64,000 bases of DNA from Vampirovibrionaceae bacterium NZW_1234. Its GTDB lineage: Bacteria > Cyanobacteriota > Vampirovibrionia > Vampirovibrionales > JAGQHJ01. The stretch is from NCBI GenBank assembly GCA_041697335.1, contig JBGUGD010000023.1, forward strand, positions 64,001 through 128,000. Reading direction: 5' to 3'. A program made the position numbers and the translations under genes. The notes beneath the pieces are model-generated. The model was not told the origin of the DNA. It was given only the letters and a program-made list of their open reading frames with translations, and made no database searches. How positions within the stretch are numbered: position 1 is the first letter of the stretch; each line of letters begins with the position of its first letter. Positions 534 to 57,100 of this stretch are shown piece after piece.

Positions 534-1751
534 ATGACCCAGATTCTTTCGCACTTTCCTTTGAAGACGGTTGCATCTCGTCGTCCCAGTATTGCCGTAA
601 TGCAATCTCAAAGCCGGTTTCCTTTAGGTGCCCGACCCATTTCCTCAGGACAGGATGTTGAAGCTCCGAGAAGACTCCGATTCGGATCAGCCATTCAAAT
701 CGACAAGATGCCTGTTTCGTCTGATGTGATGGCGGGGTTGCCCTCGCTGAAGGAGCTAAAAAAGCCGGTGGCTGTGGTTGTTGTCGGGGGGAATGCGACC
801 CAGCTGGTGATTGTTCACCCGAATAGTCAGTCGCTGGTGGCACAGACGTTGATACCTTTGGGCAGTAAAGGCAAAGGCACTGGTATCAATCCCCAGGGGC
901 TCGCCGGAACGGTGGTTCAGGGCCAGCTTCATGAGGCTTTCAAGGATTTTCAACGGGAACTGGAGGCTGCCGGTATTTTACCCGAACACCCTGAGCGTAT
1001 TCTGGCTGTGGCCACAGGCGGGGTCCGACAACTGGGGGATTCCGACCGGACTTGGGTTTTGGACACGGCGCAGAAACAGTATGGGATTCCTTTGAAGACA
1101 ATTGATGGCCACGACGAAGCCGATTTTGTTTATCGAAGTGTATTGACTGGGCAGCCCGTGGGAGCTTCTGAGCCGGTAAGGCTCATTGAAATCGGGGGCG
1201 CTTCTACGGAAATTGCCTCGGGGCGAGGAGTTTATAGCGACTCTCATCAGACAGTCACATTGCTGGTGGGTGGCGGCTCGCTGGGATTGTCTGAGCCTTT
1301 TGACCTGGGGCAATTGCAGACTGCACGCAATACGGTGTCCAAGGCAATTCACGCGTCCCAGATTCGCCCGGACGCAACGTTGCCTCGATTGTTTATGAAT
1401 CCCTCGGCGGTTTATCATACTTTGGCCACAGTCCATTTAGCCCAACATCCTGGAGAAGACCTGCTGAAAGAAGGTTTGTCGCTTCGGTTAATTCAACACT
1501 ATCTTTCTCCGGAAGGGTTACAAACCTTGAAAACGACTCATGATAGCGTCACCACTTCGGATAAAGCGCGTAAAGCTCTTAAAGACGTTCCTGCTAAACT
1601 GCTGATTCTCGAGCAGGTGCTGTTGAGTCTTGGGGCTAGCCCCGAAACGCTGGTCAGGTTCGGCTCCCCGGGAGGCATGAAAATGGGCGTGATGGCAGAA
1701 CTGATTGAAGCGGTCTCGGCTAAGGACACTGCCGCCAAGGACGCCTCGTAA
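534..1751 (+). CDS. Ppx/GppA-like (ASKHA fold) phosphatase with N-terminal extension
   Basis: Motifs VGGNATQL, VATGGVR, IDGHDEA and IEIGGASTEI parallel Ppx/GppA; SD AGGAG at 523-527. Confidence 0.75.
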   Translation: MTQILSHFPLKTVASRRPSIAVMQSQSRFPLGARPISSGQDVEAPRRLRFGSAIQIDKMPVSSDVMAGLPSLKELKKPVAVVVVGGNATQLVIVHPNSQSLVAQTLIPLGSKGKGTGINPQGLAGTVVQGQLHEAFKDFQRELEAAGILPEHPERILAVATGGVRQLGDSDRTWVLDTAQKQYGIPLKTIDGHDEADFVYRSVLTGQPVGASEPVRLIEIGGASTEIASGRGVYSDSHQTVTLLVGGGSLGLSEPFDLGQLQTARNTVSKAIHASQIRPDATLPRLFMNPSAVYHTLATVHLAQHPGEDLLKEGLSLRLIQHYLSPEGLQTLKTTHDSVTTSDKARKALKDVPAKLLILEQVLLSLGASPETLVRFGSPGGMKMGVMAELIEAVSAKDTAAKDAS

Positions 1752-1789
1752 ATTCGGGTCTGCAACTAGGGCAAGGCGCGACGAATGCG

Positions 1790-2002
1790 CTACAGGGCCA
1801 GGATCTGTTGCGAAAAATAGGTTTGAATGTTTGCAAAGACCGAGTTATAGATGAGGCCCATTTGCAATGGCGCAATGGCCACCACGGTGGCGACGATCAG
1901 AGCTCCCGTAATCATGGCTCCGGCGTACTCAATCATGGCTTGGCCGGGGTGGGCGTGGTTTTTCGCGGTGGTCGCCTGCATTTTTTTAACCATCATGGAC
2001 AT
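1790..2002 (-). CDS. Flp/Tad-type (type IVc) pilin-like protein
   Basis: G|QAMIEYA prepilin cleavage/Flp motif followed by a hydrophobic helix; 70 aa. Confidence 0.75.
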   Translation of the reverse strand: MSMMVKKMQATTAKNHAHPGQAMIEYAGAMITGALIVATVVAIAPLQMGLIYNSVFANIQTYFSQQILAL

Positions 2003-2120
2003 CCTCTCTTTCTCATTGGTGTGCCTGACGGAGCATCGGGCATGGGTTATTGGTATGTTCTTTTTATATATAGTTTAGACTGCTTTTCCATGACTTGCGT
2101 TCATCTTATGGTCTAGACCG

Positions 2121-3389: not shown

Positions 3390-3412
3390 GCTGATTCAGT
3401 CTAATGTCGTGT

Positions 3413-3442
3413 GCCGTCTGCTTTTTGGGCAGGCGGCTTTTT
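3413..3442 (+). terminator. intrinsic terminator
   Basis: GCCGTCTGC/GCAGGCGGC stem plus TTTTT. Confidence 0.75.
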
Positions 3443-5896: not shown

Positions 5897-5981
<85 letters not shown>

Positions 5982-6361: not shown

Positions 6362-6578
6362 ATGTGTAAAACCAGTCTCAACAACTGATTGTATTCAGTA
6401 TTGTAACAAGAATTGCCAAGAAGTAAAGGGAAGGTTGGAGGATTGCGAAAATCAACACATGTGCTAAAGGCTTTTTGCGTTCGGGCGTTACAATTATTTA
6501 TATTTTATATATCTTTGGCAATTTTAGGATATCCGATGTTTTTATTATCTTACGAAGAGACATTAGAGGGTTTTAATT

Positions 6579-8582
6579 GTGGGATACGGTCCTACTAATT
6601 ATGCGAATAATTTGCAGCAGCAGGTGAACAATTCGTTCCAGCAGCAGCGGCAAAGAATGATGAACCCGGCTCTGACTGGAGTAAGTTCCGATCAGCAGCT
6701 CAGTGCTCTTCAGTTGGCTGGTTTAGCACCGGGTGGGACAGTATTAGGCGATAATAGGCGCATTGCCGGAATTAGCATGGATTACCTGGGCCTGCCCCGG
6801 AATCCCATGGATCCGAATTCCATTATTGCGAATTTTGACCGCAATTATGGGCAAAACATCTTCTCGTACGCAACCGCATTGGGTGGCCCCAATAGCCTGG
6901 CGTCTCAACTCGATCGATCGTATCGGGAAGCCTTGGCCAAACAACAAGGCCGTCCACCATTTATGCCCATGCCCGGTGGTATGCAAGGGGGCTTCCCACA
7001 GCAAGGGTTCCCCGGCGGCTTTCCGCCTCAAGGCTTGCCTCCTGGCTACGGGTTTCCGCAACAAGGTTTACAGGGTGGTTTCCCGCCTCAGGGAGCCTTC
7101 CCGCAACAGGCTGGGTTTATGCAGCCGGGTTTCGCCCCAGGGCAACAAGTTCCCAATCCGTTTGGTCAGACAGGTAATAATATTAATGCCTTGCCGCAGG
7201 CGTCTAATCCATTCCAGCAGGTTCAAGCCGGTGGACAGATTCCAGGGCAGATAGGCCAGGTTCAAGGTATTGCCGGTGCAGTGGGTGCTGCCGCAGCGGG
7301 TGCAGTCGGTGCGGCCGGGGCGATGGATCCAATGACGATTATTATTCTGTTCCTGGTTCTGGCTCAGCTTACAAAAGGTAAGAAGGAACCTCCCATCCCA
7401 TTTGAAGGCTTCGAACTGGATAAGATCCTGAAAGCCATCAATGTTCAGGTGCCGGTGGACGCCAAGGACAGAGAAAAATTTGACGTCATCATCATTAACG
7501 AGCATAAACTCGATGCCCTGATGACTCGACTCGCCATTGATCCGGAAGATTATATTGAGCTTGAAAACAAGATTAACGCTGTCTTCGAGCGAGAGACAAT
7601 CGTTGATACCTATTTGACGGAATTTGGTTTCAATCCGCAGAATTACCTCTACGATATTGCCGGTAAGCTCGGCGCTCTGGAAACCAAGCAAAATCAGATC
7701 AACTTCCTGTATGCCAACATCGAATCCGACCCACCGGCTAACATTAACCTGATGGGTAAGCTGGACAAGTTGGCCGAGAGCAAGGAAGAACTTCGAGAGC
7801 TTGCAGCCCTGGTTGAATTAGATCCGCCGGAAAATGCCAAGCTGCCGGAATTCTATACGGCCTTGTTCAACAAATCCTTGGAATTGAACGGTTGGCTTAG
7901 CGAGTTTGGTTTGCCGGCACCGGCTGCCAATGCCACAATCCAAGACAAGCTGACCAGTCTGGAATCAGCACGGGCTGAAATGGATTACCTGTTGGTCAAT
8001 TTGGGACTGGATCCCGATGACTACGACTCCATTTATAAAGCTGCCAGAGCTGTTATTCAGAAAGAGGCCGATATTAATGCGTTGCTGATAAAAGCACAAC
8101 TGCAACCGGGTAATTACCAGACCATCGCCGATAAATACGACGCCCTGGTCAATAAGGAACTCGAGATCGATAGCAGTGGTCTGCTTGATGACTACGGTAT
8201 GGATGTCTCCGATGATGCCAGCTTGGCCGATAAACTCACGATGATTAAACAGGGCCGTACCGAAATCGAATTCCTGTTCCTCAACCTGGGCCTTGATCCG
8301 GCCGACTTTGATGGCGATCTCGACATCTTCAGTGAGATCCTGATCTATGGCGACGAGATCGATCAATTGCTGGAAGAGACGGCTGGCCTTGATGATGAGC
8401 CTGTTCCTCCGAATGCCACCTTGCGTGACAAGTTCAACATCCTGAAGGCTCGAGATGAGATGCTGACAGAGATATTGGAATCGCTGGATGAGGATCCTGC
8501 CGAATATCCCACCATCAAAGACAAGTTAGAGTTTCTGGAAGAATTGGCCGAGGAATTGCCGGAGGATGAACCTGAGTTCTAA
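6579..8582 (+). CDS. hypothetical protein: Q/G/P-rich N-terminal region, hydrophobic helix, ~11 acidic ~31-aa repeats
   Basis: 667-aa ORF; GFPQQ/GFPPQ repeats; TIIILFLVLA; recurring LxxxGLDPxxY....DKL units. Confidence 0.88.
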   Translation: MGYGPTNYANNLQQQVNNSFQQQRQRMMNPALTGVSSDQQLSALQLAGLAPGGTVLGDNRRIAGISMDYLGLPRNPMDPNSIIANFDRNYGQNIFSYATALGGPNSLASQLDRSYREALAKQQGRPPFMPMPGGMQGGFPQQGFPGGFPPQGLPPGYGFPQQGLQGGFPPQGAFPQQAGFMQPGFAPGQQVPNPFGQTGNNINALPQASNPFQQVQAGGQIPGQIGQVQGIAGAVGAAAAGAVGAAGAMDPMTIIILFLVLAQLTKGKKEPPIPFEGFELDKILKAINVQVPVDAKDREKFDVIIINEHKLDALMTRLAIDPEDYIELENKINAVFERETIVDTYLTEFGFNPQNYLYDIAGKLGALETKQNQINFLYANIESDPPANINLMGKLDKLAESKEELRELAALVELDPPENAKLPEFYTALFNKSLELNGWLSEFGLPAPAANATIQDKLTSLESARAEMDYLLVNLGLDPDDYDSIYKAARAVIQKEADINALLIKAQLQPGNYQTIADKYDALVNKELEIDSSGLLDDYGMDVSDDASLADKLTMIKQGRTEIEFLFLNLGLDPADFDGDLDIFSEILIYGDEIDQLLEETAGLDDEPVPPNATLRDKFNILKARDEMLTEILESLDEDPAEYPTIKDKLEFLEELAEELPEDEPEF

Positions 8583-8665: not shown

Positions 8666-9895
8666 ATGTATACTCAGCCCAACTTTACATTAACCCCACA
8701 AGGAGCACAGCCCGGCATGCTGGGTGCTGCTAACCTGGGTGTGGGCGCCATGAATACAAATGGCCTCACCATGGCCTACGGTCAAAACCTTTATGGCAAT
8801 GTCGCCAATTGGGGCGCTGCGTCACCGGGTATGGTGGCCCAGCCAGGCTGGTCGGACTTACAGACAATGCAAGGTGGGTCGCCATCGACCTTTGGCATGG
8901 CCGCATATCCTGCGGCACAACCCTTGGGTGGGGGCGATATCATGAGCAGTCTGACCGGTGCCGTCAATGTTCAACCCAACAGTTTTCTGGATATTGCCGG
9001 GATTGTCGGGGCGCAACAATCGGCGGCCCTGTTTAATCAGATGCCGCAGATGAACCCTATGGGCAATTTAATGAACCCCTCCGGGATGATGCCGGTTATG
9101 TATGCGATGCCACAAGTCACGCAGCCAATGATGACACCGCAGATGATGATGCCCCAGATGATGCCAATGCCCATGATGCCGCAATTTCAGTTTATGCCTG
9201 GGGCTCCCATGATGACCATGCCCTTTGGCATGTCTCCTCCCACAACAAACACCGCGGTTGATTCGGCGGCGATTGGGGCGGCAGCAATTTTGGCTGCTTT
9301 AAAAGGAGCTGCCGATGGCGGATCTTCATCGAAATCAACCAAGACCTTTGAGAACGCCGCATCCGGAACGAATACTCCGGCTACGGAAAACACCACAATT
9401 ACGGATAACAATCAGTCGCAACAGGCTGTCATCAACAGTCTGAACCAGCGAGTGGGTCAGTTGGAATCGCAATTGGCACAATCCCAAACGCAACTAACTC
9501 AGGCTCAGGCCCAGTTGGCCCAGTTGCAGCAATCACAACAGAATCAATCGCAGACGGGTACCAATTCCACGCAAACCAACACGACCCAGACCAATAACAC
9601 CCAGACAGAAACGACTCAAACCGGTAATACCCAGACAGAAACCACAGAAACCAACGCACAGACGGGAACGGGGGCAACCCAGACCGGCAACCAAACCCCA
9701 TCTGGAGAAACGGGTCAAACCCAAGCTTCGTCCGGAGGAACTCAAACGACACAAGAGGCCTCCCAGGAAAATAATACATCGACCCAACAAACTCAGGAAT
9801 CCAATGCCATTGATGATATGAGCAATGCCGTCAACGCGATGCTCGACAATCTGGATGATTGGACAAATGATGACTCGGAAGTGATTGAGGCATAA
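8666..9895 (+). CDS. hypothetical low-complexity protein (M/P/Q-rich, coiled coil, TQTxx repeats)
   Basis: 409-aa ORF 83 bp downstream of the previous gene, same strand. Confidence 0.85.
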   Translation: MYTQPNFTLTPQGAQPGMLGAANLGVGAMNTNGLTMAYGQNLYGNVANWGAASPGMVAQPGWSDLQTMQGGSPSTFGMAAYPAAQPLGGGDIMSSLTGAVNVQPNSFLDIAGIVGAQQSAALFNQMPQMNPMGNLMNPSGMMPVMYAMPQVTQPMMTPQMMMPQMMPMPMMPQFQFMPGAPMMTMPFGMSPPTTNTAVDSAAIGAAAILAALKGAADGGSSSKSTKTFENAASGTNTPATENTTITDNNQSQQAVINSLNQRVGQLESQLAQSQTQLTQAQAQLAQLQQSQQNQSQTGTNSTQTNTTQTNNTQTETTQTGNTQTETTETNAQTGTGATQTGNQTPSGETGQTQASSGGTQTTQEASQENNTSTQQTQESNAIDDMSNAVNAMLDNLDDWTNDDSEVIEA

Positions 9896-14406: not shown

Positions 14407-14641
14407 AATCTTACTCCTCCCCTTTCATGGATGACCTGGGTTTCTCCAAACCATGATATTTCTGCTACCACCTTAACGGATGGGGCACTCCTTTTCATTC
14501 CCCAGCTCACGGATGTCTCCTGAGCGTTCAGCCGGATTGCTGATGCCCGCTTCGGCAATCTGTCATGCCCAAGCGCAACTTTTCGGCTTGACCTCCCTTT
14601 ATTGGAGGGTTCCCCTGATGCTGGTTGATGAAAGGAAATTG

Positions 14642-16153
14642 ATGAGAGTTTGTGAGATTCGGACGGCCCTAAAGGCTGTTCCCTCCGATAAAAGGGCCTC
14701 ATATACCCCTGTATTGCCTTTGTCCTCCAGGCCGGTCTCTTCGCCAGTCACGAATGACCTTCGTTTTTCCGGCGCTTCTGCTCGGATTCGTTTGTTGTTG
14801 GCCTTTTCGGCACTTTGGGGCGGTTTGACGGCACTGCCATATCCGGCGGTTACCCTGAAACAGGTGGACCCGAAGGTCCGTCAGGAGCGGATGGCGCAGG
14901 ACGATTTGGCCTTATTTAAAGAACTCTATCAGCTTAAAGCCGAATACAAGACCATCTATAAGGCTTACTCGGCCAATCTGGACAAACGCCAGCAGGCGGA
15001 AAAGGTGCTGCGCAATTATCTGAAATTGCAGCCGGAAACCTTGAAAGCCCTGCACGTTCAGGCCGAAAAGGCTCAGGTCCTCTTTAGCCCGGACTTGCCT
15101 GCCGAGGCATTGATGAGTGAGACGGTTTTCCAGGCTTTACCCGAGGCTGCCCGACAAGATCAGCGTCTGGTGCGGTGGCGAAAGCTCTATGCCAGCCTTG
15201 AGGAAGAAGCCCGAGAATTGTACCCAACCGTGGATAGCCGGTTTAAAGCCTATGCACGCTTTATTGGAGTCAACCAATCCGCCCTGGTTCATGCCATCAA
15301 CCGAAACCGTGTTGAGCCGCCTGTGGCCAACCCGAAGAACCCATTGCCTGATAATGTCAGAACCATGGCCGCCACTCTGCAACAGGATTCCGTCATTCAA
15401 GACGGCTTTACCGGGAGCAATATGGCAATGCGTCAGTTTATCCGAGCCCTCAGCCTTACAGAGTCCATGAACTCAGCCTATAATGCCCTCGATGAAATGC
15501 CCTTGCGCTTGCAGACCTATAGTCCCGAGATCCAAAAGCCAATTTCGACCTTGCGATCGGATCCGGCGTGGAAGCTGCATTGGCAAAAGCGGCACAATGC
15601 GGATCCGTCCGTCACCCGCATTGCCATTTTAATTCCCACGGAAGGCAATGATGCGTTGGAGGAAATGAATTTTGCCGACCAGATGACGCAGCTTAAAACG
15701 GCCTTGACGGATCCCAAAACAGGGTACCGCGTTGATTCGGTGATTCTGCCGCCCCCTGCCCAAAAAGAAGACGGGATTGTCCTTTTTCCGTCCTTTGAAG
15801 GCCGGGTGAACCGGGCCTTTGCCCAGGCTTGCCAGGAGCGGGATAGAATTCTGGCCGAGCGACCCGGGCAGAAGGTCGAGTTTTTTGTGGCCTGGATGGG
15901 CCACGGCGGGGTGGACACCAAGGGCCGCCCGACCCCGCAGGACCCGGATTCCTTGGATTTTTACCGCCAGGGCACCGGTGATTTTGTCCTAGGGCTAAAT
16001 CGCTGGGAGAGCCTCCCCCCCAAAAAACGGCATGCCTTGCTGGCCAGCCTCGGGGGACCGACCTTCGAGCTCCTGATTGCCTGCCACGCCGGAGCCGGCA
16101 TTTGTAAACAAGTTGAGTCACCGTGTAAGCCTGATGCGAGTCGTCTCACTTGA
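14642..16153 (+). CDS. hypothetical protein with C-terminal caspase-like (clan CD) His/Cys motifs
   Basis: FFVAWMGHGG and LLIACHAG; N-terminal LRFSG followed by a TM helix. Confidence 0.65.
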   Translation: MRVCEIRTALKAVPSDKRASYTPVLPLSSRPVSSPVTNDLRFSGASARIRLLLAFSALWGGLTALPYPAVTLKQVDPKVRQERMAQDDLALFKELYQLKAEYKTIYKAYSANLDKRQQAEKVLRNYLKLQPETLKALHVQAEKAQVLFSPDLPAEALMSETVFQALPEAARQDQRLVRWRKLYASLEEEARELYPTVDSRFKAYARFIGVNQSALVHAINRNRVEPPVANPKNPLPDNVRTMAATLQQDSVIQDGFTGSNMAMRQFIRALSLTESMNSAYNALDEMPLRLQTYSPEIQKPISTLRSDPAWKLHWQKRHNADPSVTRIAILIPTEGNDALEEMNFADQMTQLKTALTDPKTGYRVDSVILPPPAQKEDGIVLFPSFEGRVNRAFAQACQERDRILAERPGQKVEFFVAWMGHGGVDTKGRPTPQDPDSLDFYRQGTGDFVLGLNRWESLPPKKRHALLASLGGPTFELLIACHAGAGICKQVESPCKPDASRLT

Positions 16154-18634: not shown

Positions 18635-20284
18635 TCATGCAGGGTTGTCAGCCAAGGTGACGGATTGTGTTCGGCTCAAGAGGGAGGTATAGCCTTCCAG
18701 TCGACCGGTCGGGCGAATCTTGTTGCGAAATTCGTTATTTTCACCAATGCAGCGAATAAAGATACTGTACTCAGCACAATTCACGGCAATGCTGTTGCCG
18801 TTGCGATTCAGGCGGAGCTCTCCCTCATCAGTGGCATTATAGAGCGCCGCGAGGTCAAAAAAGAGGAACGGGAGATTGGGAGTGTCTTTATGAAGCGTGA
18901 CCACAAAGGTGGCGGGTTTCCCGCTATGCTCCACAAGGGCATCTTTGAGAACTTTACGCACCGTTTCCGGGGTGGTTTGACTGGGGCTCAAATCCAGTTG
19001 AATGATGGGTTCCCGGTTTTGTGATTTGGCATAGTGCTGAATTGACCAATCGAACTCGGACTGACTGTTATTTTGAGGGTCAAAGACCGTGAAGAGGTGC
19101 TGCCGACTGAGCAGACTCTGCCCCACATAGCGGTTTAGCTTGTGGATTTTACCAATGTTGAGTTTGGACGTATTGGGATCAATAGCCAGTTTTTCGTCGA
19201 TAGTATTAATATGATGATCCGCTTGAGAAACAATACCATAATTACCGCTATTCCAATCATAGCCAAGATAGCGGGTAAACCAGCGTTTGGCTTCCGCTAA
19301 TTCTTTTTGTTCGGATTCCTGATGGGGCGCGATTTGTTTTTCCCAAGCCTGCAGCCCATTGAGCATTAAGTCCTTTAGGGGGGGTAAGGGCTTTTCATCA
19401 ATCAGGCCGCATGTTTTAAAGACTTCTTTTCGCAGAAAGGTGAAGAAGTCTTTCGGGGTAATTCGTTGTGACACAAAATTAATATTAGAATGAACAATTA
19501 TATCTGCCTTGATATCATTGCGAGCTTCATAGTCGTTTATATTCTGGTAGGTTTCGAGCAGGGCTTTGGGAATAAGCAACGAGTTCGGGCTGATAATTTC
19601 ATTATAGAATGCTCTTTTTTCGCCGGAGTGAATCGCATGAAAATAAGTTGCTGCATTGGTCTGTTGAGTAAAATTAATCCGATATTTATTTAAATTTAAT
19701 TTGTTTTGAGCATCTAAGCTTCTCCAATTTTTGCAATTATTGTCCCAGAGGTTGGAGAAGACTTCGATTAACGCAGCCTTATCTTGGACATGCTCAGCAT
19801 GCTTATGGAGTAAATGCTGCCACAGGGTGGTTTTCTTACTGTCTTTCAACGAAGAATCTTCACGCCGTTGCAACAGATTCAGAATGGCCTCATCTCGTTG
19901 TGCTTTCGGGAGTTCTGCCAGCCGTCGATCAATACCGGACTTTGTCTCAAAATCGGTGGGAAGCCAGCCACGTTTCAAGTTCGTGACCCAGCTGGGAACA
20001 TCTGCGGTAACTGTCTTGCCCGAGCTTTTAGAAGACGCGGCATTGCCTCTGAAATAGGCAATAACGCGGCGAACATAATCCATAACAATGTCTGCGATGT
20101 TGACAAAAAAACGGGTCACACTCTTCAAAAGTCTCCTGAACGGGCCTGGTGAGCTTGCCGTGTCGGCAGTTTTGGTTTCCGAAGCAAACCGAAGGTGATG
20201 AGTTTGTTTTGTGCTGGGTAATATCAGCGACGTCGGGACAAAACGGGAATGTGTGTGAACCGGATTGCACGATTGAAGGGACAT
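18635..20284 (-). CDS. hypothetical effector-like protein (LRFASE motif)
   Basis: 549-aa AT-rich ORF; Ser/Pro-rich N-terminus, amphipathic helix, weak ClpB-D2-like C-terminus. Confidence 0.85.
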   Translation of the reverse strand: MSLQSCNPVHTHSRFVPTSLILPSTKQTHHLRFASETKTADTASSPGPFRRLLKSVTRFFVNIADIVMDYVRRVIAYFRGNAASSKSSGKTVTADVPSWVTNLKRGWLPTDFETKSGIDRRLAELPKAQRDEAILNLLQRREDSSLKDSKKTTLWQHLLHKHAEHVQDKAALIEVFSNLWDNNCKNWRSLDAQNKLNLNKYRINFTQQTNAATYFHAIHSGEKRAFYNEIISPNSLLIPKALLETYQNINDYEARNDIKADIIVHSNINFVSQRITPKDFFTFLRKEVFKTCGLIDEKPLPPLKDLMLNGLQAWEKQIAPHQESEQKELAEAKRWFTRYLGYDWNSGNYGIVSQADHHINTIDEKLAIDPNTSKLNIGKIHKLNRYVGQSLLSRQHLFTVFDPQNNSQSEFDWSIQHYAKSQNREPIIQLDLSPSQTTPETVRKVLKDALVEHSGKPATFVVTLHKDTPNLPFLFFDLAALYNATDEGELRLNRNGNSIAVNCAEYSIFIRCIGENNEFRNKIRPTGRLEGYTSLLSRTQSVTLADNPA

Positions 20285-20540
20285 CGGTATTCTTGCCTTA
20301 TGCTTGGATTAAATTGGACCGGCGATAAAACGCAGTACTGTAATAAACCATTTCAATACCATCTTTTGATATGGCGTAACAGACTATGTCACGAATTCAA
20401 CACAAAGTGCTGGTATCTCCGAAATCCGTGCTTTGCTATGTTTGACTCGGCGTTAAGAGCGTATCCAGTGCGAGACAAACGAGTATCGGAGATACCCAAA
20501 ACAATGAAAAGTCCGATGTCGCTAATGTTTAACGATCTGA

Positions 20541-28751: not shown

Positions 28752-30134
28752 TTACTCGAAACGCTCAGGTGGAAAGTCGGGCCAGGGATCTTGGTGATAA
28801 GTGCTGCGTTTCTGTTCGGGTATCTTCAAGCGCTCTTCCGCTGCTTGAACGGCCATTTGAAAGCCTTTCGTTGTCCAAAGTGCATGTATAATATTCCAGG
28901 ATATTTGGGGTTTGTTTTTAAGAAGCGGAATAGGCTTTGTCGCTTCTGCCCATTGCATGCGATATGCTTCGCACTCAGAGTAAAGCCGTGCAGAAAGAAC
29001 AACTCGAAGGTCTTCTAAGGGTAGACTATCGATGTAAGAGTGTTGGTACTCTTGAAAACTTTTATAGGTTTTTAGCTCCTCGTACGGAGTATTTAAGAAT
29101 GCTTTTAGATGAAGCCACTCTGAATAAGAGCTTAAGGCAAATCTTTCAGATTCTTTTGGCAAGGGTGGGAGATTATGAGACTCTCGATAGTCATTATAAA
29201 GTTTAGAACCTAAAGAATAGTTCTTTTTGTAATGTTCTCTTTTTATTGTGTTTTCAAATTTACTTTCAAGCTCTATATCAGTCATCGGAGATTGGGAAAT
29301 GATACGGAGCTTGTGATTAATCTCATGGACGAGAACACCGTAGGTTGCTGCAAATTCTCCTGGCGTTTGTAGTTTGTTAGGCAGGTATATGTGTATTTCA
29401 CCTAAATAATAGACGGGTCTCATTAGGTCATCTGAAGAATAGATCTTTTCCTTTTTGTCATAAACTGGATCCGACCAATCTACTTCATTGGTAAAGAAAC
29501 AATCGCCAAGCCGCTTTGATTCAAACCGAGTTTTATGCCAACCCTCTAGTGTAAACAAATAGAACCTTTTTGTAGGATTTTGGATGCGAAATCCCACAAA
29601 GCCTTGGGGGTGGATGTGTTTTTGGAAGGCCCGGTTAAAGATTTGTTCAGCTTCTGCTTGGGGAATTTCTTTGGGATTTTTTTTAATGAGGGCAAGCAAT
29701 TCCGGGAAAATTTCATCGGCGATGGCTTTGGTTTTTATGCGTCGTTTTTCGGGGGTCTCCAATCCCTTCGGTATTTTGAAGTCGCTGAGTTTGAGTAAGG
29801 GAAGGATACGGGGTTTGAAGTAAGGCGGTTGCTTTGCCCAGACTAATACCCGGTTGATGAGTTGTTTGAAAGCCCATATCGCATCAATAAATTTCTCTTT
29901 GATTTGTCCAAAAAAGCTCCAAACCGGTTGAAAAACACTTTTGCTCTGAAAAACCTTCTTCTCGGATGCAAATCGGGTAGAGGCGATGTGCTCCACGCGA
30001 CTGTTCTCAAAGCCATTGGCTTCGTTTAATGTGAGTCCAGCCTCAAAAACAGCTGAACGTGTTGAGGCTTGGCCTTGCAATAACCAAGAACAACCGTTTT
30101 TATGGTGCCAAAGACGATAAGGTTCAATCCGCAT
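28752..30134 (-). CDS. hypothetical effector-like protein with HExxH motif
   Basis: TRFASE N-terminal motif; LVHEINH and downstream ECEAY. Confidence 0.78.
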   Translation of the reverse strand: MRIEPYRLWHHKNGCSWLLQGQASTRSAVFEAGLTLNEANGFENSRVEHIASTRFASEKKVFQSKSVFQPVWSFFGQIKEKFIDAIWAFKQLINRVLVWAKQPPYFKPRILPLLKLSDFKIPKGLETPEKRRIKTKAIADEIFPELLALIKKNPKEIPQAEAEQIFNRAFQKHIHPQGFVGFRIQNPTKRFYLFTLEGWHKTRFESKRLGDCFFTNEVDWSDPVYDKKEKIYSSDDLMRPVYYLGEIHIYLPNKLQTPGEFAATYGVLVHEINHKLRIISQSPMTDIELESKFENTIKREHYKKNYSLGSKLYNDYRESHNLPPLPKESERFALSSYSEWLHLKAFLNTPYEELKTYKSFQEYQHSYIDSLPLEDLRVVLSARLYSECEAYRMQWAEATKPIPLLKNKPQISWNIIHALWTTKGFQMAVQAAEERLKIPEQKRSTYHQDPWPDFPPERFE

Positions 30135-30289
30135 ATTTAAAACGACAAGATGGTGTTGAAATACGGATTAGTACCATAGCAAAAATATGGTTTTGCAACA
30201 TATTGTCTTCACTCCTCCAAAATCAAAACCCCTGAAGGGAATTTTGTGCCAATTTATGGCAGGGGAGGACGCAATAATTAATACCTGTG

Positions 30290-32032
30290 TTATTTGGAGG
30301 GCTCGGTCGTGGTGGGGGAGTCTGGGGTCAGGGTAATGGCGTAGCCCAGGCGCTCCTGAATGTTTTTACCGGCTGGCGAATTCATCACCTTGATGTCTTT
30401 CCAGGGACGATCGGAGTTGAGGACCACAATCGTGTTCTGAAGATCCAGCTTGGGCCAACCATTTGAGCTGAGCAGCGTGCCCAATGCCTTCAGGGGACCG
30501 TTTGCTCGGCTGGGAGGTGTCAGAGCATCCAATGCATGGACGTTGTCCACCAGAATCATGTTGCCCGCCAGCGAATAGATGTCGTCCTCCTGCTTGATCG
30601 CGGCCTTTAAGAGCTTGGCTTCAATGGCTTCATGGCTTTTCAGTTCGTGCAGGTCGAGAGTAATGAGTTTATTGGGTCCCTGAAGTGTTTCCGACAGTTT
30701 TTGGGCCAACTTTCTTCCCTCGCCTGCCGAGCCGACAATACCGAGCTGGGTGGTCACAATCTGGGGGCCAAGTGACTGGCCGGGTAAATAACTTTTCCAG
30801 GTTTCAATGGCATTGGCCAGTGTCTCAGCAATGGTGTATTGGCCTCCTGAGTCTGGATGGGTTTGGTCGCCATGGCCCTTGAAATCCTGGGCTACGCTGG
30901 CTGCAACCGTTTGGGGGTTGATTTCCCGATATTTGCCCAATTGCTTTCGTGTCTTCAGCATTTCTTTGGCCTGGTGAACCTGAAACGTGTCTTTGGAGAG
31001 GAGCCGTTTTTCCAGGGCCAGGTTAAGCGCCCAGCTTTCGCCAAAGGTTTCGGGTTGATCCGAATGGAGCTTCGCCCCCACCAGACCGGCCAAGACGAGT
31101 TGATCGTTCGGGCTGTTGATCGCTGTGGCCAACAGGTTTACATAGCGAGGAGGACGCAACGCCGGGAAGCGGATGAACCCAAGTACCCCTGCTGCTTTGA
31201 TGACGGGGCTTTCATGTTTTATGGACTCCCGCAGAGCTCTTTTGAGCGATTCTTCGATGCCCGGCGTCATTTTGGCCAGGGGATCTGCGGCGAGATTCTG
31301 AAGCGCAAAGAGGACCATGGCTTTTTGTGCATCCGGGATGGGTTTTTCAAGGGTCTTCATCAAGGCCTGGGTTTGTTTGGCGTAGTCGATGGTAATGCGT
31401 TTCTTGGGCGTGGTCAGTGTACGGGCATACAGTCGGGGAAAGTCCGGGATTTGGCAGAGTCTTTCCAGGAGGCTCTCTGCTTGCTCGCGATTTGCTGCGT
31501 TTTTTCCTTTCAGCGCCTTGTGCAACACAGGAATATAGGCTTCCAGTGCTTTCAGATCAACGGAGCTGTGCGGGGCAAGATCTTCAGGAGAAATTTTGCT
31601 GACTTTCAGAAGGTTTTCCAGGTTCGGCTCCGTAAAGGGCACAAGATCCGCCGTTTGACGGTTCAGGGTATGGAGTCTGCTCTGAATCTGTAATTCCCGG
31701 CGCAGGCGTTCGCGTTCATCTTCCGGCACCGCGTCCGCGTCTTTAGAAGGTTTGGCGTCCGGTGTACTTTTCCAAGGATTTGCAGGGCGCGTGCCTGTAA
31801 ATAAACCAATGAGCCATTTGAAAGGGTACAACAGGGTATTCACCAGAACAGCAAGGGTTTTTTTGAAATCAGCAGACCAGGTTCTCTGTTTCTCGGCTTG
31901 CTTTTTCTCTCCAGATTCTGAACAAAATCGAACGGAAATCCTGGAGAAGCTGGATGCAGGCAGGCTTTTTGCTGGCGAAGCAGCCACGGGGCGTTGAGAA
32001 GGGACCCATGTGCGTATCAGTTCTAAAGGCAT
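30290..32032 (-). CDS. effector-like protein with HEAT-like helices and a degenerate ClpB-D2-type AAA+ domain
   Basis: VRFCSE; GSAGEGRK, ITLDLHE, ILVDN and LDLQNTIVVLNSD. Confidence 0.8.
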   Translation of the reverse strand: MPLELIRTWVPSQRPVAASPAKSLPASSFSRISVRFCSESGEKKQAEKQRTWSADFKKTLAVLVNTLLYPFKWLIGLFTGTRPANPWKSTPDAKPSKDADAVPEDERERLRRELQIQSRLHTLNRQTADLVPFTEPNLENLLKVSKISPEDLAPHSSVDLKALEAYIPVLHKALKGKNAANREQAESLLERLCQIPDFPRLYARTLTTPKKRITIDYAKQTQALMKTLEKPIPDAQKAMVLFALQNLAADPLAKMTPGIEESLKRALRESIKHESPVIKAAGVLGFIRFPALRPPRYVNLLATAINSPNDQLVLAGLVGAKLHSDQPETFGESWALNLALEKRLLSKDTFQVHQAKEMLKTRKQLGKYREINPQTVAASVAQDFKGHGDQTHPDSGGQYTIAETLANAIETWKSYLPGQSLGPQIVTTQLGIVGSAGEGRKLAQKLSETLQGPNKLITLDLHELKSHEAIEAKLLKAAIKQEDDIYSLAGNMILVDNVHALDALTPPSRANGPLKALGTLLSSNGWPKLDLQNTIVVLNSDRPWKDIKVMNSPAGKNIQERLGYAITLTPDSPTTTEPSK

Positions 32033-32144
32033 CTGAAAATTGTCCTTCGATTCGTATCGATCTGAATAACATGAACACACTGAATTTCAAAAGTTGCTAT
32101 CACTCCAGACCGTTTACGAGGACGGAGGATTGAATCGCAAGCCG

Positions 32145-36310: not shown

Positions 36311-36811
36311 ATGAAGGTTGTAACGCCTGCATTGCATGTTTCGGCTGGGATTAGCCGTCCCCGGTTTGGGTATATGACACAAGAGCAAGCTGCTGCGGTG
36401 TTAGAGATGCTGCATCCCAAAGACCGGGCCCGTGAACTGGTGGAAAAACTAGAGGACCTGGCCCGGCAGGAGTTCGGGTTTATGAGTCAGGAGCGTCGGG
36501 CCAACTTGACGGCGCAAAACGACAAAACCCAAAAAGAACTGCTCAAGGTTGTGAAAGAACCCGATTTTGGTAAAAAGGATGCCATTGAACTTTTGGCGTT
36601 TCTCTACAGCAATCGGGACACCTTAAAGCATGAGCTGAAGCCGGAAGTCTTTAAAGCCATTGAGGCCAAGGCAAAGTCGCGTGCGTCTTCGCCACCCCCG
36701 GTGGAAACCGAAATTCCAGAGGCCATTAAGAGACGATTGGGTATCCAGACCGGTGCCGTGACAGCGGAGCAGGTGCTCTCCCAGTTGGGGGTGCTGACAA
36801 ACCAGTCATAA
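36311..36811 (+). CDS. hypothetical protein (PRFG N-terminal motif)
   Basis: SD GGAGG upstream; terminator downstream. Confidence 0.8.
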   Translation: MKVVTPALHVSAGISRPRFGYMTQEQAAAVLEMLHPKDRARELVEKLEDLARQEFGFMSQERRANLTAQNDKTQKELLKVVKEPDFGKKDAIELLAFLYSNRDTLKHELKPEVFKAIEAKAKSRASSPPPVETEIPEAIKRRLGIQTGAVTAEQVLSQLGVLTNQS

Positions 36812-50410: not shown

Positions 50411-51037
50411 ATGATTCTCAAACAACCTGGGCCGACAGGGACGTCGGCTCCTCCCAAGCTGGGAGTTTATACGGTCCCGTACTCCCTGCAAGGAAAGCCT
50501 GAAGTGGCTCAACTTGCAGTTAAAGCCATTCAAAATGAAGTCCGTTTGCTGCAAGGAGACGATTTTCCCTTTGTGGCCCATTACAATGGCGGAACCATGT
50601 CTCCGCGGGACGCCGATAGCTTCAAGGCGTCTTACACCATTTATATGGGAAAACATGCGGACTTTTTTAAGCGGTACCAGAAGGTTTCCAATCGTGAAAA
50701 TGATGTGTTTCTCCAATACCGCGATGCCATTGATGCGGTGAACACGAGTAAACGTCATGATGCAACGGAAAAGCAAGCCATGCTTGCCCGCGTGCACGAT
50801 TATTTTAAACCTCGCTATGACCTGATCAAAGGTCGCTACGACAAGATGATCAAGGCCTTCCGCCGAATGGTGAAAAAAATGGATGACACCCCCATTCCGG
50901 CAGAAAAAATTCTGACCAGTTTGAAACAGGGTGTCTTTGATGTCTATACAGGTCACATTCGGCGCTTTGCGCCTCCGGGTTCAGGTCGGATTCCACGGGA
51001 TGCTGCCGCCCAGACCCGAGTCCGCATCAGCGCTTAG
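50411..51037 (+). CDS. hypothetical protein
   Basis: ATG preceded by GAGGT; downstream terminator. Confidence 0.75.
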   Translation: MILKQPGPTGTSAPPKLGVYTVPYSLQGKPEVAQLAVKAIQNEVRLLQGDDFPFVAHYNGGTMSPRDADSFKASYTIYMGKHADFFKRYQKVSNRENDVFLQYRDAIDAVNTSKRHDATEKQAMLARVHDYFKPRYDLIKGRYDKMIKAFRRMVKKMDDTPIPAEKILTSLKQGVFDVYTGHIRRFAPPGSGRIPRDAAAQTRVRISA

Positions 51038-51057
51038 ATAGACAATTCCATTTCCAT

Positions 51058-53602: not shown

Positions 53603-54505
53603 ATGCAACCTATTGATTCGAATCTACTGGTAGAGCTTGAGACCCATTTTAAGCTTTATTCTTCTCAGGTAGCTCAGAATGCAAAGAAGCCAAGAGGCCT
53701 TTTAGGGACCCTAAATCATTGGTTGTCTTTGTGCTTGCCCTCTAAATTATATAATTTATTCCGTTCCTCCTCCTGCTATCGAAACTTTTACCTGTTTTTT
53801 CGACGCAAAGCTTTGTTGACTCCCGATCCGGCTTTACTTGCTTTGTACTCCCAATTTATTACTCCAGATATGGTATGTTTTGATGTTGGTTCCCATTTAG
53901 GCTCTCGTATTACCGCTTTTCTTGCATTAGGGGCAAGAGTCATTGCTTGTGAACCTCAAAAAAATTGTGTCGCTATCTTGAGTTGTCTTTTTGATAATTC
54001 TTCTCGTGTAAATCTAATCCCGAAAGCGATAGGGAGCGCGACTGGCGTTACAGAGATTCAGATATGTAACAATACGCTGGTATCTTCCTTGAACCCTTCT
54101 TTTACTAAAAGCATGTTAGATACAGGGTGGAAAATTGTCTCAATTGCAACTCAACGTGTGGATGTGACGACTTTGGACTCGTTGATTGCGGAGTATGGGG
54201 TGCCGGGTTTTTGTAAAATTGATGTTGAAGGCTTTGAGTCGGCGGTTTTACAGGGGCTGACAAGCCCAATTCCAGCTTTGAGCTTTGAATTTCATATGTG
54301 GACACCAGAAATGAGAGAGGCTCTTTTAGATTGCTTGGCTCAGCTTGAGTCTTTAGGGCAGTATCAGTTTAACTTTTCTTTGGGGATGACCTACACGTTG
54401 GCGCTATCTTCATGGGTCGGTAAAGACGAATTACAAGACATGTTAATGAATAGACTGCCTCACGATGCTGAAGGCGATATTTACGCCAAACTGATTTCGG
54501 CATAA
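53603..54505 (+). CDS. FkbM family methyltransferase
   Basis: FDVGSHLG, ACEP and KIDVEGFE motifs. Confidence 0.92.
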   Translation: MQPIDSNLLVELETHFKLYSSQVAQNAKKPRGLLGTLNHWLSLCLPSKLYNLFRSSSCYRNFYLFFRRKALLTPDPALLALYSQFITPDMVCFDVGSHLGSRITAFLALGARVIACEPQKNCVAILSCLFDNSSRVNLIPKAIGSATGVTEIQICNNTLVSSLNPSFTKSMLDTGWKIVSIATQRVDVTTLDSLIAEYGVPGFCKIDVEGFESAVLQGLTSPIPALSFEFHMWTPEMREALLDCLAQLESLGQYQFNFSLGMTYTLALSSWVGKDELQDMLMNRLPHDAEGDIYAKLISA

Positions 54506-54811
54506 AGCAAAAGACAAGCAACTTGTCTGGTGGTCTTGTGAAACTGGCATAGTCGTTGTCGGATCAAACTCGTTGGGGCGTGCATAGACGCTTTATTAAA
54601 TCCTGGCTCTCCTGGTAGACGTCTATCAATTTCCTATCGGATTGGTGCCTGCGAGTTCAGACTTCTTGAACTAAAGGTCAGTCAAATCATAAATAGCTGA
54701 GAATGATGACAAAATCACGCGTTCCTATTTTGTGAGGTTCGTACTCGTGCAATGAAGTGCTAGACTAGAGCTATTGCAAACTCTAGTGAACTGGTATTGT
54801 TTGTGAATATA

Positions 54812-56047
54812 ATGCCCAAGCCCATTGCTGAACAGGTTGATCATGCGCCCCATATATCCAAGACGGCGGCGTTGTGTTGGTTTGGGTGGGTGTTTGATTT
54901 TTATGACTTGATCCTGATTGCCTTTCTCATTCCGGCCATTGAGGAGTCGCTGCATTTGGATGTCAAGGCTGGGGCATGGCTTTTAGGTGTGGGCTTGGGG
55001 GCTTCGGGACTGGGCGGTATTTTGTTTGGGTGGTTGGCGGATTTGTATGGGCGTAAAAAGATTCTGACGGTGACTGTGTTGCTGTTTTCGCTGGGGATGC
55101 TGGCCACCGGGTTCACCCAGACAGCATGGCAGTTTTTAATTGCCCGTTTTATTACCGGCCTTGGCCTGGGCGGGGAGTGGGCTGTTGGGCATGCGCTGAT
55201 TGCCGAGTCTGTTCCGGCGGCAAAGCGGGCCCGATGGAGCGCTTTTTTACAAAGCGGGGAACCGGTCGGGGTTGCCATTGCTGCCGTGATGGGGTTTATG
55301 GTTGCTCCGGTGATTGGCTGGCGAAATGTCTTGATTTTATCGTCATTGACCGGGCTATTGGCGCTGCTGTTTCGGCGTCACCTGACGGAGTCGCCGTTGT
55401 GGCTGGCTTCTCCCGCCTTGCGCTCTCGCGAGCGCCTGGAAGCCTTGAAGCCCTTTTTGCGGAATTACAAAGGCCTGATGCTGATTGCCTTTATTTTGGC
55501 CGTATTTAAGCTGGGCACCTATTGGACCTGCTACACGTGGTTGCCCCGGTTTATCAAGGCTTCGTTTGGGCTGGAGCTTCATAAGTCGGCCCTGTGGATT
55601 TTGTGCGGGCAGTTGGGGCAGTTTATCGGGATGTATGCCTTTGGCCTGGTTGCCGATAAGATTGGCCGCCGCTGGGCCTTTACCGGATTTTCCCTGTTGA
55701 CTGCCATGGCGTTGTTGCCTCTGGCCGTGTTCTGGCATGAGCTCTTTGCCGATTGGCCGACCTTGTTTTGGGCGTTGATTTTTCTGCTGGGCTTTGGCTC
55801 CGGCTGTACTGCCGGGTTTGGGGCCTTGCTGTCGGAATTGTTCCCCACGGTGCAGCGGACCTTTGCCATGGGTACCGTATATAGTCTTGCCAGAGGGGTG
55901 CAGATTTTTGCACCCGTTATTGTGGCTTCCGCTGTCAGTGAGGCGGGCTTGATGGGAGGATTGCTGGTACCGACTACGCTGGCGGTTTTAACGGCGCTGT
56001 GGGTTTGGACATTGCCGGAGCGGAAAGGGACTTCGCTGGCGGCTTAA
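54812..56047 (+). CDS. MFS transporter
   Basis: GWLADLYGRK, RFITGLGLGGEW and ELFPT motifs. Confidence 0.95.
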   Translation: MPKPIAEQVDHAPHISKTAALCWFGWVFDFYDLILIAFLIPAIEESLHLDVKAGAWLLGVGLGASGLGGILFGWLADLYGRKKILTVTVLLFSLGMLATGFTQTAWQFLIARFITGLGLGGEWAVGHALIAESVPAAKRARWSAFLQSGEPVGVAIAAVMGFMVAPVIGWRNVLILSSLTGLLALLFRRHLTESPLWLASPALRSRERLEALKPFLRNYKGLMLIAFILAVFKLGTYWTCYTWLPRFIKASFGLELHKSALWILCGQLGQFIGMYAFGLVADKIGRRWAFTGFSLLTAMALLPLAVFWHELFADWPTLFWALIFLLGFGSGCTAGFGALLSELFPTVQRTFAMGTVYSLARGVQIFAPVIVASAVSEAGLMGGLLVPTTLAVLTALWVWTLPERKGTSLAA

Positions 56048-56209
56048 GGCTCCGCGGACTGAATGCTCTGTAAATATTTCGTAATACACGTCGGGCTTTT
56101 GGCAATTCAGCATCTTGAGCGAGTATCTTTAAACTAACCCCACCCTGAAGCAAATTGGCTCTGTGTGCTTCTGGAACGGGGTGTGATGTCCTATAGGAGT
56201 TTCCACCCG

Positions 56210-57100
56210 ATGAACGTAATTTCTTTTCAACCCGCGTTTCAAGCCGTCCAGTCCAAGGCATCCGGCTTGATGCGCCAGCAATTGAAACAAGGTTTACTGC
56301 CGTTGGCATCGACCCAGGCCAAGGATACCGTCACGTTCCGGGGGCGCGGGGATGATTATGATGCGCCTCGCAACCTGTCTCCAAGCGAGAAGAAATATGG
56401 GGAAGCCCTGGCTCTGGCAGAGCGGGTGACCCAGCAAGACACCCCCAAGCTGACGCTGTCGAAGCGGGCCGGGCAAATTGAGAAGCTCTTTGCCGAGGCC
56501 GTCGAATTGGGTGTCAAGGAAGGCAACGCCAACCTGGTCTACAGCGTTGGCCTCGTGAACCATCATGGGGTTGAGCGCTTTTATGAGAACGGCTTGGGTG
56601 GTGTGCACCGGTATCATCAACTGCCCAAAACCGCAGACAAAGGGCAAGCAGAACCATTGGATAAATGGATTGTGGTGCCCAATTACGAGTTGGGTATGGA
56701 CTATTTCCGCAAGGCGGCCCAAGTGGCGCAAAAGACCGGCGATAGCTGGACCATGATGAATGTGGCCCGCAAGTTTAGCGATGGCCTGCGTCGGCATTCG
56801 GCGGATCGTCCCAGCTTGCCCATCACCCCGGAGATGTGCCACAACGAAGCCAAGGATTATCTGGGTCAGGCGGTGTCGCTGGCTCGTAGAACCCTGGCCG
56901 ATGTTCCCAAACCGGAGAACTTCCGGGTTGCGGATAACGTGAAGTATGCCGTCGGTGTGCTCCGCAAGGTGGATGACATCTACCGCAACGGTGCTGAGAT
57001 GGATCGCTATGATGACGCTCGCAAGACCTTTCCGCCGATGCCTGAAAAGGCCGAGGAGCTGGCACCCTTGCTGGCTAAGTTTGCCAAAGTGGTTGTCTAG
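56210..57100 (+). CDS. hypothetical helical protein (DTVTFRG N-terminal motif)
   Basis: SD AGGAG; Sel1/TPR-like helices (GMDYFRKAAQ, AKDYLGQA). Confidence 0.8.
   Translation: MNVISFQPAFQAVQSKASGLMRQQLKQGLLPLASTQAKDTVTFRGRGDDYDAPRNLSPSEKKYGEALALAERVTQQDTPKLTLSKRAGQIEKLFAEAVELGVKEGNANLVYSVGLVNHHGVERFYENGLGGVHRYHQLPKTADKGQAEPLDKWIVVPNYELGMDYFRKAAQVAQKTGDSWTMMNVARKFSDGLRRHSADRPSLPITPEMCHNEAKDYLGQAVSLARRTLADVPKPENFRVADNVKYAVGVLRKVDDIYRNGAEMDRYDDARKTFPPMPEKAEELAPLLAKFAKVVV

Follow-up and report, generated by a model that had tools for sequence, protein, structure and literature searches.

A short N-terminal RFG tag on about one protein in ten of a Vampirovibrionaceae genome: a candidate export label for a second, flagellum-derived type III apparatus

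The window analyzed here is a stretch of 64,000 nucleotides from Vampirovibrionaceae bacterium NZW_1234, a non-photosynthetic bacterium akin to the cyanobacteria (G000:C30:64001–128000); the genome is 3.70 Mb and 94.75% complete. Several open reading frames of the window encode a leader that ends in a short tag of the type R-F-G, and most of these are preceded by a promoter-like element (Table 1). The tag, its regulon and a second flagellar-type export gene set elsewhere in the genome (set 2) are the subjects of this report. A sequence-only reading had pointed to nine open reading frames with such motifs, and all nine and their motifs are found in the DNA where it placed them. The six main cases are true tag bearers, with 7.5–10.2 bits on a matrix derived from the whole genome. 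The three weaker variants fared unequally. The Arg-less variant of the gene at 56210 is plausible, as it belongs to a class, D-x-[VLI]-x-F, that is enriched 5.8-fold. The PKLG word of the gene at 50411 is rejected as a tag (1 of 2,973 as against 9 of 10,359), and the 20789 open reading frame is doubtful as a member, i.e. it is 57 aa long with a weak coding score, no ribosome-binding site (RBS) and a matrix score of 3.3. The motif had also been said to be absent from the housekeeping proteins of the window. This holds with one exception, a chance match at residue 65 of the receiver protein at 62228.

Genes were called with our own script (3,160 genes, 82% coding) and some starts are misplaced. 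The position of the true starts is important, since starts lying downstream of the motif would remove the leader. This is not borne out. Promoter-like elements scoring 13–23 lie just upstream of the genes at 14642, 20284, 30134 and 32032 (none is found at 36311), and an ATG with a strong RBS within 60 codons downstream of the tag occurs in only 3 of 244 tagged genes (40 of 1,479 control windows). Thus the genuine starts appear to lie upstream of the tag. The location of the element ahead of ATG 14642 likewise supports a start upstream of the tag in that gene. The gene at 20284 is an exception in the gene callers: both our own caller and the public protein record start it at GTG 20119, past the motif, which counts against the upstream start. 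This start is contradicted by the homologues and by the promoter element upstream. The 20284 protein has five non-self matches, and the three that are full length (25%–27% identical) all keep the tag, as VRFGQ, IRFTG and VQFQG.

Table 1. Tagged genes, tags and promoter-like elements of the window, and gene clusters of set 2 on other contigs. Elements are given with their scores.
Position	Strand	Feature	Remarks
1..371	+	3′ part of tagged orphan, 201 aa	start 234 nt left of window; PRFGS at residue 13; promoter 23.1; overlooked by the sequence-only reading
457..484	+	weak promoter-like element, 7.9	ahead of gene 534
534..1751	+	tagged Ppx/GppA-family protein, 405 aa	tagged paralogue on C26
675..689	+	LRFGS tag	its Phe is residue 50; score 8.9
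6518..6545	+	promoter-like element, GTTTTTAT subtype, 13.4	precedes untagged Gln/Pro/Gly-rich gene
6579..8582	+	untagged gene of same regulon	second leader class, rich in Gln/Pro/Tyr/Met/Gly
14575..14602	+	strong promoter-like element, 22.0	overlaps ATG 14480 frame; 40 nt before ATG 14642
14642..16153	+	tagged orphan, 503 aa	tag followed by hydrophobic stretch; genome has two paralogues without tag
14759..14773	+	LRFSG tag	score 8.6
18635..20284	-	tagged orphan, 549 aa	tag followed by amphipathic helix
20180..20194	-	LRFAS tag	score 8.6
20342..20369	-	promoter-like element, 15.5	upstream of ATG 20284
28752..30134	-	tagged orphan, 460 aa	exact start not certain: RBS lacking, and TTG19 and GTG47 lie ahead of tag as well
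29964..29978	-	TRFAS tag	score 10.2
30222..30249	-	promoter-like element, 22.9	
30290..32032	-	tagged protein, 580 aa	tagged paralogue on C4, 31%
31919..31933	-	VRFCS tag	score 7.5
32070..32097	-	promoter-like element, 13.1	
36311..36811	+	tagged orphan, 166 aa	without clear promoter element
36359..36373	+	PRFGY tag	score 9.7
56102..56129	+	weak promoter-like element, 8.8	with TTGAG core
56210..57100	+	probable member	Arg-less D-x-V-x-F variant at 56324–56344
C32:10110–20950		set 2	fliI2-flhA2-fliH2-(385 aa)-fliF2-fliE2-lytic transglycosylase-flgC2-flgB2-two rod genes
C8:66046–69852		set 2	fliR2/Q2/P2/O2 and FliN-domain gene
C29:178730–180600		set 2	flhB2 adjoining sigma-28-like gene
C30:51984–52826		set 2	further rod/hook-like gene

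The tag is genuine, extends over the whole genome and is in frame and N-terminal only. RFG is the most enriched tripeptide at residues 2–55 of 2,733 proteins, with 158 occurrences against a composition-corrected expectation of 31.5 (P ~ 1e-57). This count needs no matrix. A position matrix obtained by expectation maximization, which was trained on the same N-termini, gives the consensus [VPLI]-R-F-[GSAQ]-[GSA] with Ser, Pro and Ala preceding. At a cut-off of at least 6, 286 of 2,973 proteins are tagged, i.e. about one in ten, while 13.4 are expected by chance as judged from 10,652 internal windows. The simpler pattern [VPLI]RF[GSA] is found at 132 of 2,144 N-termini, as compared with 8 mid-protein and 21 C-terminal windows; when the same DNA is read in its two other frames, the counts are 34 and 27. 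The enrichment over background that the sequence-only reading had made the test of its motif is therefore present. Synonymous codons for R, F and G in the tag are used about as in the rest of the genome. This indicates a peptide signal, and a signal at the RNA level was dropped. Tagged genes are spread over 32 of 41 contigs and have a normal GC content.

The leader spans about 3–58 residues, is disordered, shows a high content of Ser, Pro, Thr and Arg (S 12.9%, P 10.0%, T 8.1%) and precedes a folded domain. Acidic residues are scarce (D+E 3.6% vs 9.4%) and the net charge is positive in 134 of 141 leaders, at about +3. The Phe of the tag is at residue 6–50 (5th–95th percentile, median 20) and within the first 12 residues in 88 of 286 proteins. 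In 252 of 286 the residue immediately ahead of Phe is Arg, while only 2 have Arg two residues ahead of it. A hydrophobic stretch resembling a signal peptide is found in 5 of 286 tagged but in 473 of 2,480 untagged proteins, so that the h-region of a general secretory (Sec) or twin-arginine (Tat) signal is missing. Thus the leaders are N-terminal and disordered, rich in Ser/Pro/Thr and without a hydrophobic core, as is the case for type III signals. The Ser/Pro/Arg-rich and non-hydrophobic character that had been assigned to the leaders of the window is a genome-wide property, but the 30134 leader is not rich in Ser and Pro, and in the 14642 protein a hydrophobic stretch directly follows the motif. 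Leu, Ile or Val is present within residues 2–5 in 177 of 198 tagged proteins (1,543 of 2,480 untagged). An amphipathic excess, helical or beta, was not found in the leaders (72 of 141 lie above their own shuffles). The gate-recognition motif read by FlhB has the consensus F-x-x-x-hydrophobic, and this pattern is not enriched here (75 of 286 vs a 28% background). Amphipathic helices after the tag are present in some cargos but are not general (17 of 209 vs 74 of 1,411). Those of the 18635–20284, 28752–30134 and 30290–32032 proteins of the window and of their homologues are rich in Trp, Phe and Lys and may be membrane-targeting elements.

The promoter-like element has the form [G/T]CAA-TTT-n5-TTGAG-n5-TTTA and ends at a median of 50 nt before the ATG. 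With a cut-off score of at least 12 it is present at 99 of 286 tagged and 80 of 2,480 untagged genes (p = 3e-56), and on the reverse strand at 13 of 286. Tagged genes are seldom internal to operons; gaps under 30 nt are found for 4% of them, as compared with 22%. The TTGAG core is associated with tagged genes (p = 2e-4) and the GTTTTTAT subtype with untagged ones. The element is also found ahead of tagged genes in the genomes of relatives (G121, G123, G124). It is a putative promoter, which a sigma factor of the sigma-28 type may read. Two sigma-28-like paralogues, 42%–45% identical, are at C16:18950–19630 and C29:179899–180600; on C16 the element precedes a small gene that leads into the sigma factor gene. 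The regulon includes two pairs of M16 peptidase genes (C7:57006–59899 and C8:148926–151875) that carry the element with scores of 18.2 and 16.7. Each pair is lineage-specific and resembles the alpha and beta subunits of the mitochondrial processing peptidase (MPP), with one HxxEH subunit and a low-complexity leader on each subunit. A third M16 protein is tagged.

A second class of orphans displays low-complexity N-termini rich in Gln, Pro, Tyr, Met and Gly. Such leaders are found in 13 of 80 untagged genes bearing the element and in 34 of 2,022 controls. Examples are window positions 6579–8582 and 8666–9895, C8:70271–72307, C30:47242–48780 and C28:12076–13371. Many of these genes are under the GTTTTTAT subtype and some have short Leu-rich tails; they are candidate structural or adhesive substrates.

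Pfam domains were searched in 138 of the 286 tagged proteins and in 60 untagged controls of the same loci (60 of a random 130, without flagellar loci). No domain was found in 90 of 138 tagged proteins as against 18 of 60 controls. Where a domain is present it begins after the tag in 46 of 48 proteins, and about six of the annotated matches are native to their families or due to chance, i.e. FliD (twice), FliW, YdjM, UDG and a methyltransferase. The cargo had been described as divergent enzymes. This is correct for about a third of the tagged proteins genome-wide, while in the window Pfam recognizes one of nine (534, Ppx/GppA). In addition, the C-terminal part of the 30290–32032 protein has an AAA-like match with an Atlas score of 0.84, below 0.9, and this is a lead only. 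Proteases and related proteins among the cargo are subtilase, trypsin, calpain-like and M16 types, together with FtsH/ClpB-like and ClpP-like proteins. Carbohydrate and lipid enzymes include alpha-amylase, MalQ, alpha/beta hydrolases, enoyl-CoA hydratase and aldehyde dehydrogenase (ALDH). The subtilase, trypsin, calpain-like, M16, amylase and alpha/beta-hydrolase types are signal-less, which fits export. Nucleotide, RNA and NAD enzymes are represented by NUDIX, Ppx/GppA, ADP-ribosylglycohydrolase, RtcB, NAMPT, CinA, Gmk and PurA, and central metabolism by citrate synthase, malate dehydrogenase (MDH) and glutamate dehydrogenase (GDH). Leaderless paralogues are present in the same genome for citrate synthase, MDH, isocitrate dehydrogenase, GDH, PurA, ALDH, Gmk, NadD, RtcB and others. 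The tagged aconitase (G000:C20:394–3000, L311) has a 105-residue tagged extension, and an internal ATG with a plausible RBS lies exactly at the start of the orthologues; two isoforms are therefore possible.

Phage counter-defence genes are able to restore NAD and RNA in the host. The tagged NAMPT, NadD-like, CinA, ADP-ribosylglycohydrolase and RtcB genes (C37:127898–129679, C14:6999–7787, C25:35135–36052, C14:171624–173102, C21:5095–6285), taken together, resemble such a kit.

The tag is conserved among homologues while the leader sequence otherwise diverges. This is best seen in citrate synthase. Among 120 homologues, RFG leaders are found in 5 of the 13 that are longer than 385 aa (query included) and in none of the 107 short ones. 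The leaders of the five tagged enzymes are mutually unrelated and all end in RFG. In a 45-row tree, from which the fifth is absent, four of them group as one clade within the leaderless enzymes. The citrate synthases of the genome resemble proteins named Vampirovibrio sp., and one longer, RFG-bearing homologue is not assigned to a lineage. Two of the five, L018:3942–5225 and L256:14585–15853, depart from the others in a conserved word of the active site and may thus differ in their use of substrate. The tag is also found in four other genera of the family, where 13 of 215 sampled genes score at least 5. Internal windows give 3 of 658 (p = 2.5e-6), and chance probably accounts for a few of the 13. 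In family f7, which groups with named Gastranaerophilales in a tree of FlhA proteins, a variant [VIL][SN]F.G is modestly enriched (11 of 652 vs 12 of 2,116, p = 0.009).

An inventory of secretion systems had been proposed as a check on the tag. It revealed set 2, which is separate from the complete flagellar set, so that the genome has two FlhA genes. It also revealed a Tad/Flp pilus cluster and a secretin cluster of the type II secretion/type IV pilus kind; VirB4 and a type VI sheath were not found in the genome and VirB10 was below the cut-off. By tblastn the genome has no second FlgK, FlgL, FlgD, FlgH, FlgI or FlgA and no detectable second filament genes. A second motility system of the lateral type would be expected to bring a flagellin and genes for hook junction, cap and ring of its own, and in this respect set 2 does not qualify. 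The 385-aa protein at the position of FliG gave a low-confidence single-sequence model (pLDDT 51). Near fliR2/Q2/P2, C8:61797–62681 encodes a 294-aa Leu/Met-rich helical-repeat protein with an MgtE_N (FliG-like) match, and this is a possible missing FliG part of set 2.

Across the class, set 2 shows higher conservation than the motility set does (loci L004, L005, L019, L286 and L011 are among the records). Close homologues of FlhA2, 62%–67% identical, are found in records of Gastranaerophilales, Melainabacteria and Vampirovibrio, which, with the citrate synthases, places the genome in the class Vampirovibrionia. Eleven set-2 gates form one long-stemmed clade (stem 1.75) on the flagellar side and outside SctV, in a quick tree of 53 rows where long branches call for caution. 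The tree holds 53 of the 55 or more rows picked, without the FlhA2 of G004 and three others. The gates of families f6, f8, f9 and f11 lie outside the tree and are assigned to set 2 by identity (42%–49% vs 34%–39%) and by the lack of flagellin. FlhA-like matches occur in 94 of 120 class genomes, with 0 of 23 in f5 and 0 of 2 in f10. In a draw of 60 genomes, f7, f8 and f9 show flagellin in 0 of 28, FliF2 in 26 of 28 and the sigma factor in 28 of 28, and f5 and f10 show all three in 0 of 10. The sigma-28-like family is present in 50 of 50 genomes that bear set 2 and in 0 of 10 that do not. These genomes are kin and not independent, thus the counts amount to about three retentions and two losses. 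In G122, G121 and L060, tagged genes occur within set-2 operons or adjoin them. Two tag-like genes of this type are L247:6890–8415, inside the set-2 operon of G122, and L060:12113–13411, directly after flhA2 in a Gastranaerophilales-type record.

The RFG tag is very probably a sorting or export label, and if the proteins are indeed exported, set 2 is the probable route. Taken together, the reading of the tag as an export address label for this second, flagellum-derived type III machine is the one that we favor, with some reserve. The earlier proposal of a signal particular to the lineage is thus retained: orphan and enzyme cargo carries an N-terminal signal that is not of the Sec type, and the foremost candidate for its route is a type III-like one. 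We infer that the tagged proteins would leave the cell via set 2 and enter prey. The tag has been put on duplicates of enzymes that the cell also has without it, and on many orphans. A dedicated sigma factor would turn on the tagged genes at one stage of life, i.e. on contact with prey or host. The tag would be read by the set-2 gate, the ATPase platform or some chaperone, and the unfolded cargo would cross the envelope, probably into another cell. There, proteases, glucanases, lipases and enzymes of nucleotide and NAD salvage, of beta-oxidation and of the tricarboxylic acid (TCA) cycle to glutamate would turn the contents of the recipient into food. The tag may be removed after export.

Several points weigh against this reading. 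The chief difficulty is that RFG is found at the level of the family while the machine spans the class. The pattern [VPLI]RF[GSA] is not detected as a tag outside the family: 2 of 369 genes in f2 and f3, 0 of 62 (f4), 0 of 104 (f6), 0 of 652 (f7), 0 of 86 (f8) and 0 of 82 (f9), with 0 of 77 in the set-2-negative f5. Samples of 62–369 genes (f2, f3, f9 and set-2-negative f5 included) are small and a tag frequency of 1%–2% could escape. A lineage-specific spelling of the tag and small substrate sets elsewhere might explain this distribution. The structural genes of set 2 lack the promoter element (best score 7.6) and are mostly untagged, and a strict promoter pattern is above control also in genomes without set 2 (61 genomes; lineages not separated). 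No needle, translocon or dedicated secretin was recognized in the genome, though a divergent one might escape notice; both secretins of the genome belong to the Tad and type II/type IV pilus clusters. No CesT-type chaperone was found in the genome by a search whose control also gave none, and a single YbjN match (E-value 0.036) is below the cut-off. The sole aconitase of the genome is tagged. The Tad cluster (C2:140738–149266) and the type II/type IV pilus cluster are present as alternative routes. A predicted complex of the leader with the C-terminal parts of FlhA2 and FlhB2 scored 0.00, which is evidence neither way.

The first of the alternatives accepts export but has the label read elsewhere, by the canonical flagellar type III system, the Tad (Kil-like) pilus or the type II/type IV pilus apparatus, alone or with set 2. 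Such machines are encoded in the genome, RFG follows the family and not set 2, and both FliD caps and FliW start with similar F-G words. These words are native to the FliD and FliW families, however, and the genes lack the promoter element. A type II route needs the Sec or Tat signals that the leaders do not have, and the [VIL][SN]F.G variant is present in f7, which is free of flagellin. In favor of this alternative, a Tad pilus and a needleless type III system work together in Myxococcus (PMC12075869). On balance we regard another route as unlikely.

A label with an intracellular role, i.e. a degron or adaptor site that clears stage-specific isoenzymes made under one sigma factor, or that gathers them in a compartment, is likewise unlikely. 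It would agree with the common regulon, with the presence of tagged ClpB-, ClpP- and FtsH-like proteins and with the many cargos that are ordinary cytoplasmic enzymes, including the aconitase. The excess of orphans and the signal-less proteases and glucanases are not accounted for, and it offers no reason for full duplicate pathways. We know of no N-degron as sharp as the RFG tag.

A third alternative, which is compatible with export, is that the tag is primarily a processing site where the MPP-like M16 pairs cut after R-F and free mature enzymes. The two pairs under the same promoter element and the tagged third M16 protein suggest this, and a cut at R-F|G puts Arg at P2, as in the MPP motif (PMC12670562). 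The P1′ residue is Gly, Ser or Ala and not the bulky hydrophobic one that MPP prefers according to the same source, nearly a third of the leaders are under 12 residues long, and long polar linkers follow the tag. A primary role in processing is thus improbable. Least probable is the organelle transit-peptide mimic of the sequence-only reading, which would send cargo to the mitochondria or plastids of a eukaryotic prey: acid-poor, Ser/Arg-rich, positive leaders, TCA and beta-oxidation cargo and the predation of V. chlorellavorus on Chlorella (PMC4451040) speak for it, but the leaders show no amphipathic excess, hardly ever have Arg at -2 and are in many cases too short, and Ppx/GppA, ClpP and release-factor domain cargos suit a bacterial cytoplasm.

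The address-label reading can be compared with known systems. Injectisome effectors have N-termini that are disordered, Ser/Pro/Thr-rich, acid-poor and non-hydrophobic before a folded domain, as here, and some cargos here have amphipathic helices after the leader. As in the injectisome, genes for an export gate and its ATPase are present here apart from those of the flagellum (second FliP/Q/R, FlhA, FlhB, FliF, FliH and FliI). The injectisome gate is in the SctV clade, unlike that of set 2, and no counterparts of the injectisome needle, translocon and CesT chaperone were recognized in this genome. To our knowledge the signals of injectisome effectors have no sharp consensus. The Plasmodium PEXEL and oomycete RxLR motifs are short, Arg-led and mark a large exportome in eukaryotes; they come after a Sec signal, which RFG leaders do not have. 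Buchnera keeps filament-less flagellar basal bodies for export. There a single reduced set is found, for which we know of no substrate tag, whereas here a second set and a tag are present.

Early flagellar subunits carry a hydrophobic signal right at the N-terminus and the FlhB gate-recognition motif (PMC10936197), which is similar to the two-part leader described here, i.e. Leu/Ile/Val in residues 2–5 and a short hydrophobic motif further in. A flagellar-type gate is the candidate reader. The consensus is different, hundreds of cargos here are non-structural, and most set-2 rod subunits are untagged. The Myxococcus needleless system with its Kil/Tad pilus (PMC12075869) is also an incomplete type III machine of a predator with a Tad cluster. 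The Myxococcota gate proteins group with SctV and the set-2 gate does not, set 2 retains rod, FliE and FliF, and the available text of that paper does not describe a substrate tag. Mitochondrial presequences (PMC12670562) are positive, Ser/Arg-rich and acid-poor and occur on TCA-type enzymes, like the leaders here, which lack an amphipathic helix, have Arg adjacent to Phe and are often too short.

Partial flagellar sets are known from Gastranaerophilales. An operon with the gene order of set 2 (flgG, flgC, fliF, fliH, flhA, fliI), flhB and a second flhA are listed in PMC3787301, where in 2013 the missing filament genes were read as genome reduction. Here, the set stands beside a complete flagellum and is accompanied by a candidate tag, regulon and sigma factor. 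Retained flhB, fliI and flgG were ‘postulated’ in 2026 to secrete (bioRxiv 10.64898/2026.04.24.720558). PMC5877343 was also drawn on for the comparisons. A type IV system was proposed for V. chlorellavorus (PMC4451040) and is not found in the NZW_1234 genome. The tagged proteins do not resemble substrates of a VirB/D4 system, as the tag is N-terminal, VirB4 was not found and VirB10 was seen only below the cut-off. In the passages of the literature that the search covered, neither the tag nor its regulon nor a dual system of export is described.

A broader proposal is put forward tentatively and we hold it to be somewhat doubtful as a whole. The Vampirovibrionia may have made an injection machine out of the flagellum, independently of the injectisomes known so far, with a dedicated sigma factor and a readable linear address code (RFG here, Ser/Asn-Phe-x-Gly in gut Gastranaerophilales). 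About 300 injected proteins, including duplicate enzymes of the TCA cycle, beta-oxidation, glutamate, nucleotide and NAD-salvage metabolism, would then perform feeding inside the prey, and the co-regulated MPP-like peptidases may trim the tag. If so, the ‘incomplete flagella’ of gut Gastranaerophilales would be an actively kept secretion system, and catabolic pathways delivered as a whole would form an effector set of a new kind. That a flagellum was turned to secretion a second time, and independently, would bear on the origins of injectisomes. Type III signals lack a consensus, which makes their substrates difficult to predict, and a sharp tag with a shared promoter would let the exportome, about a tenth of the proteome, be read from sequence. 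The proposal is also a testable alternative to the type IV model for the feeding of Vampirovibrio-like bacteria.

The DNA is present in metagenome runs from hot springs and microbial mats (12 rows listed; 2 of them contain half of the words and could be the source), and no RNA run is among the runs listed as containing it. With this occurrence, bacterial and algal prey are both possible. A separate Flp-like pilin gene is found in the window at positions 1790–1996.

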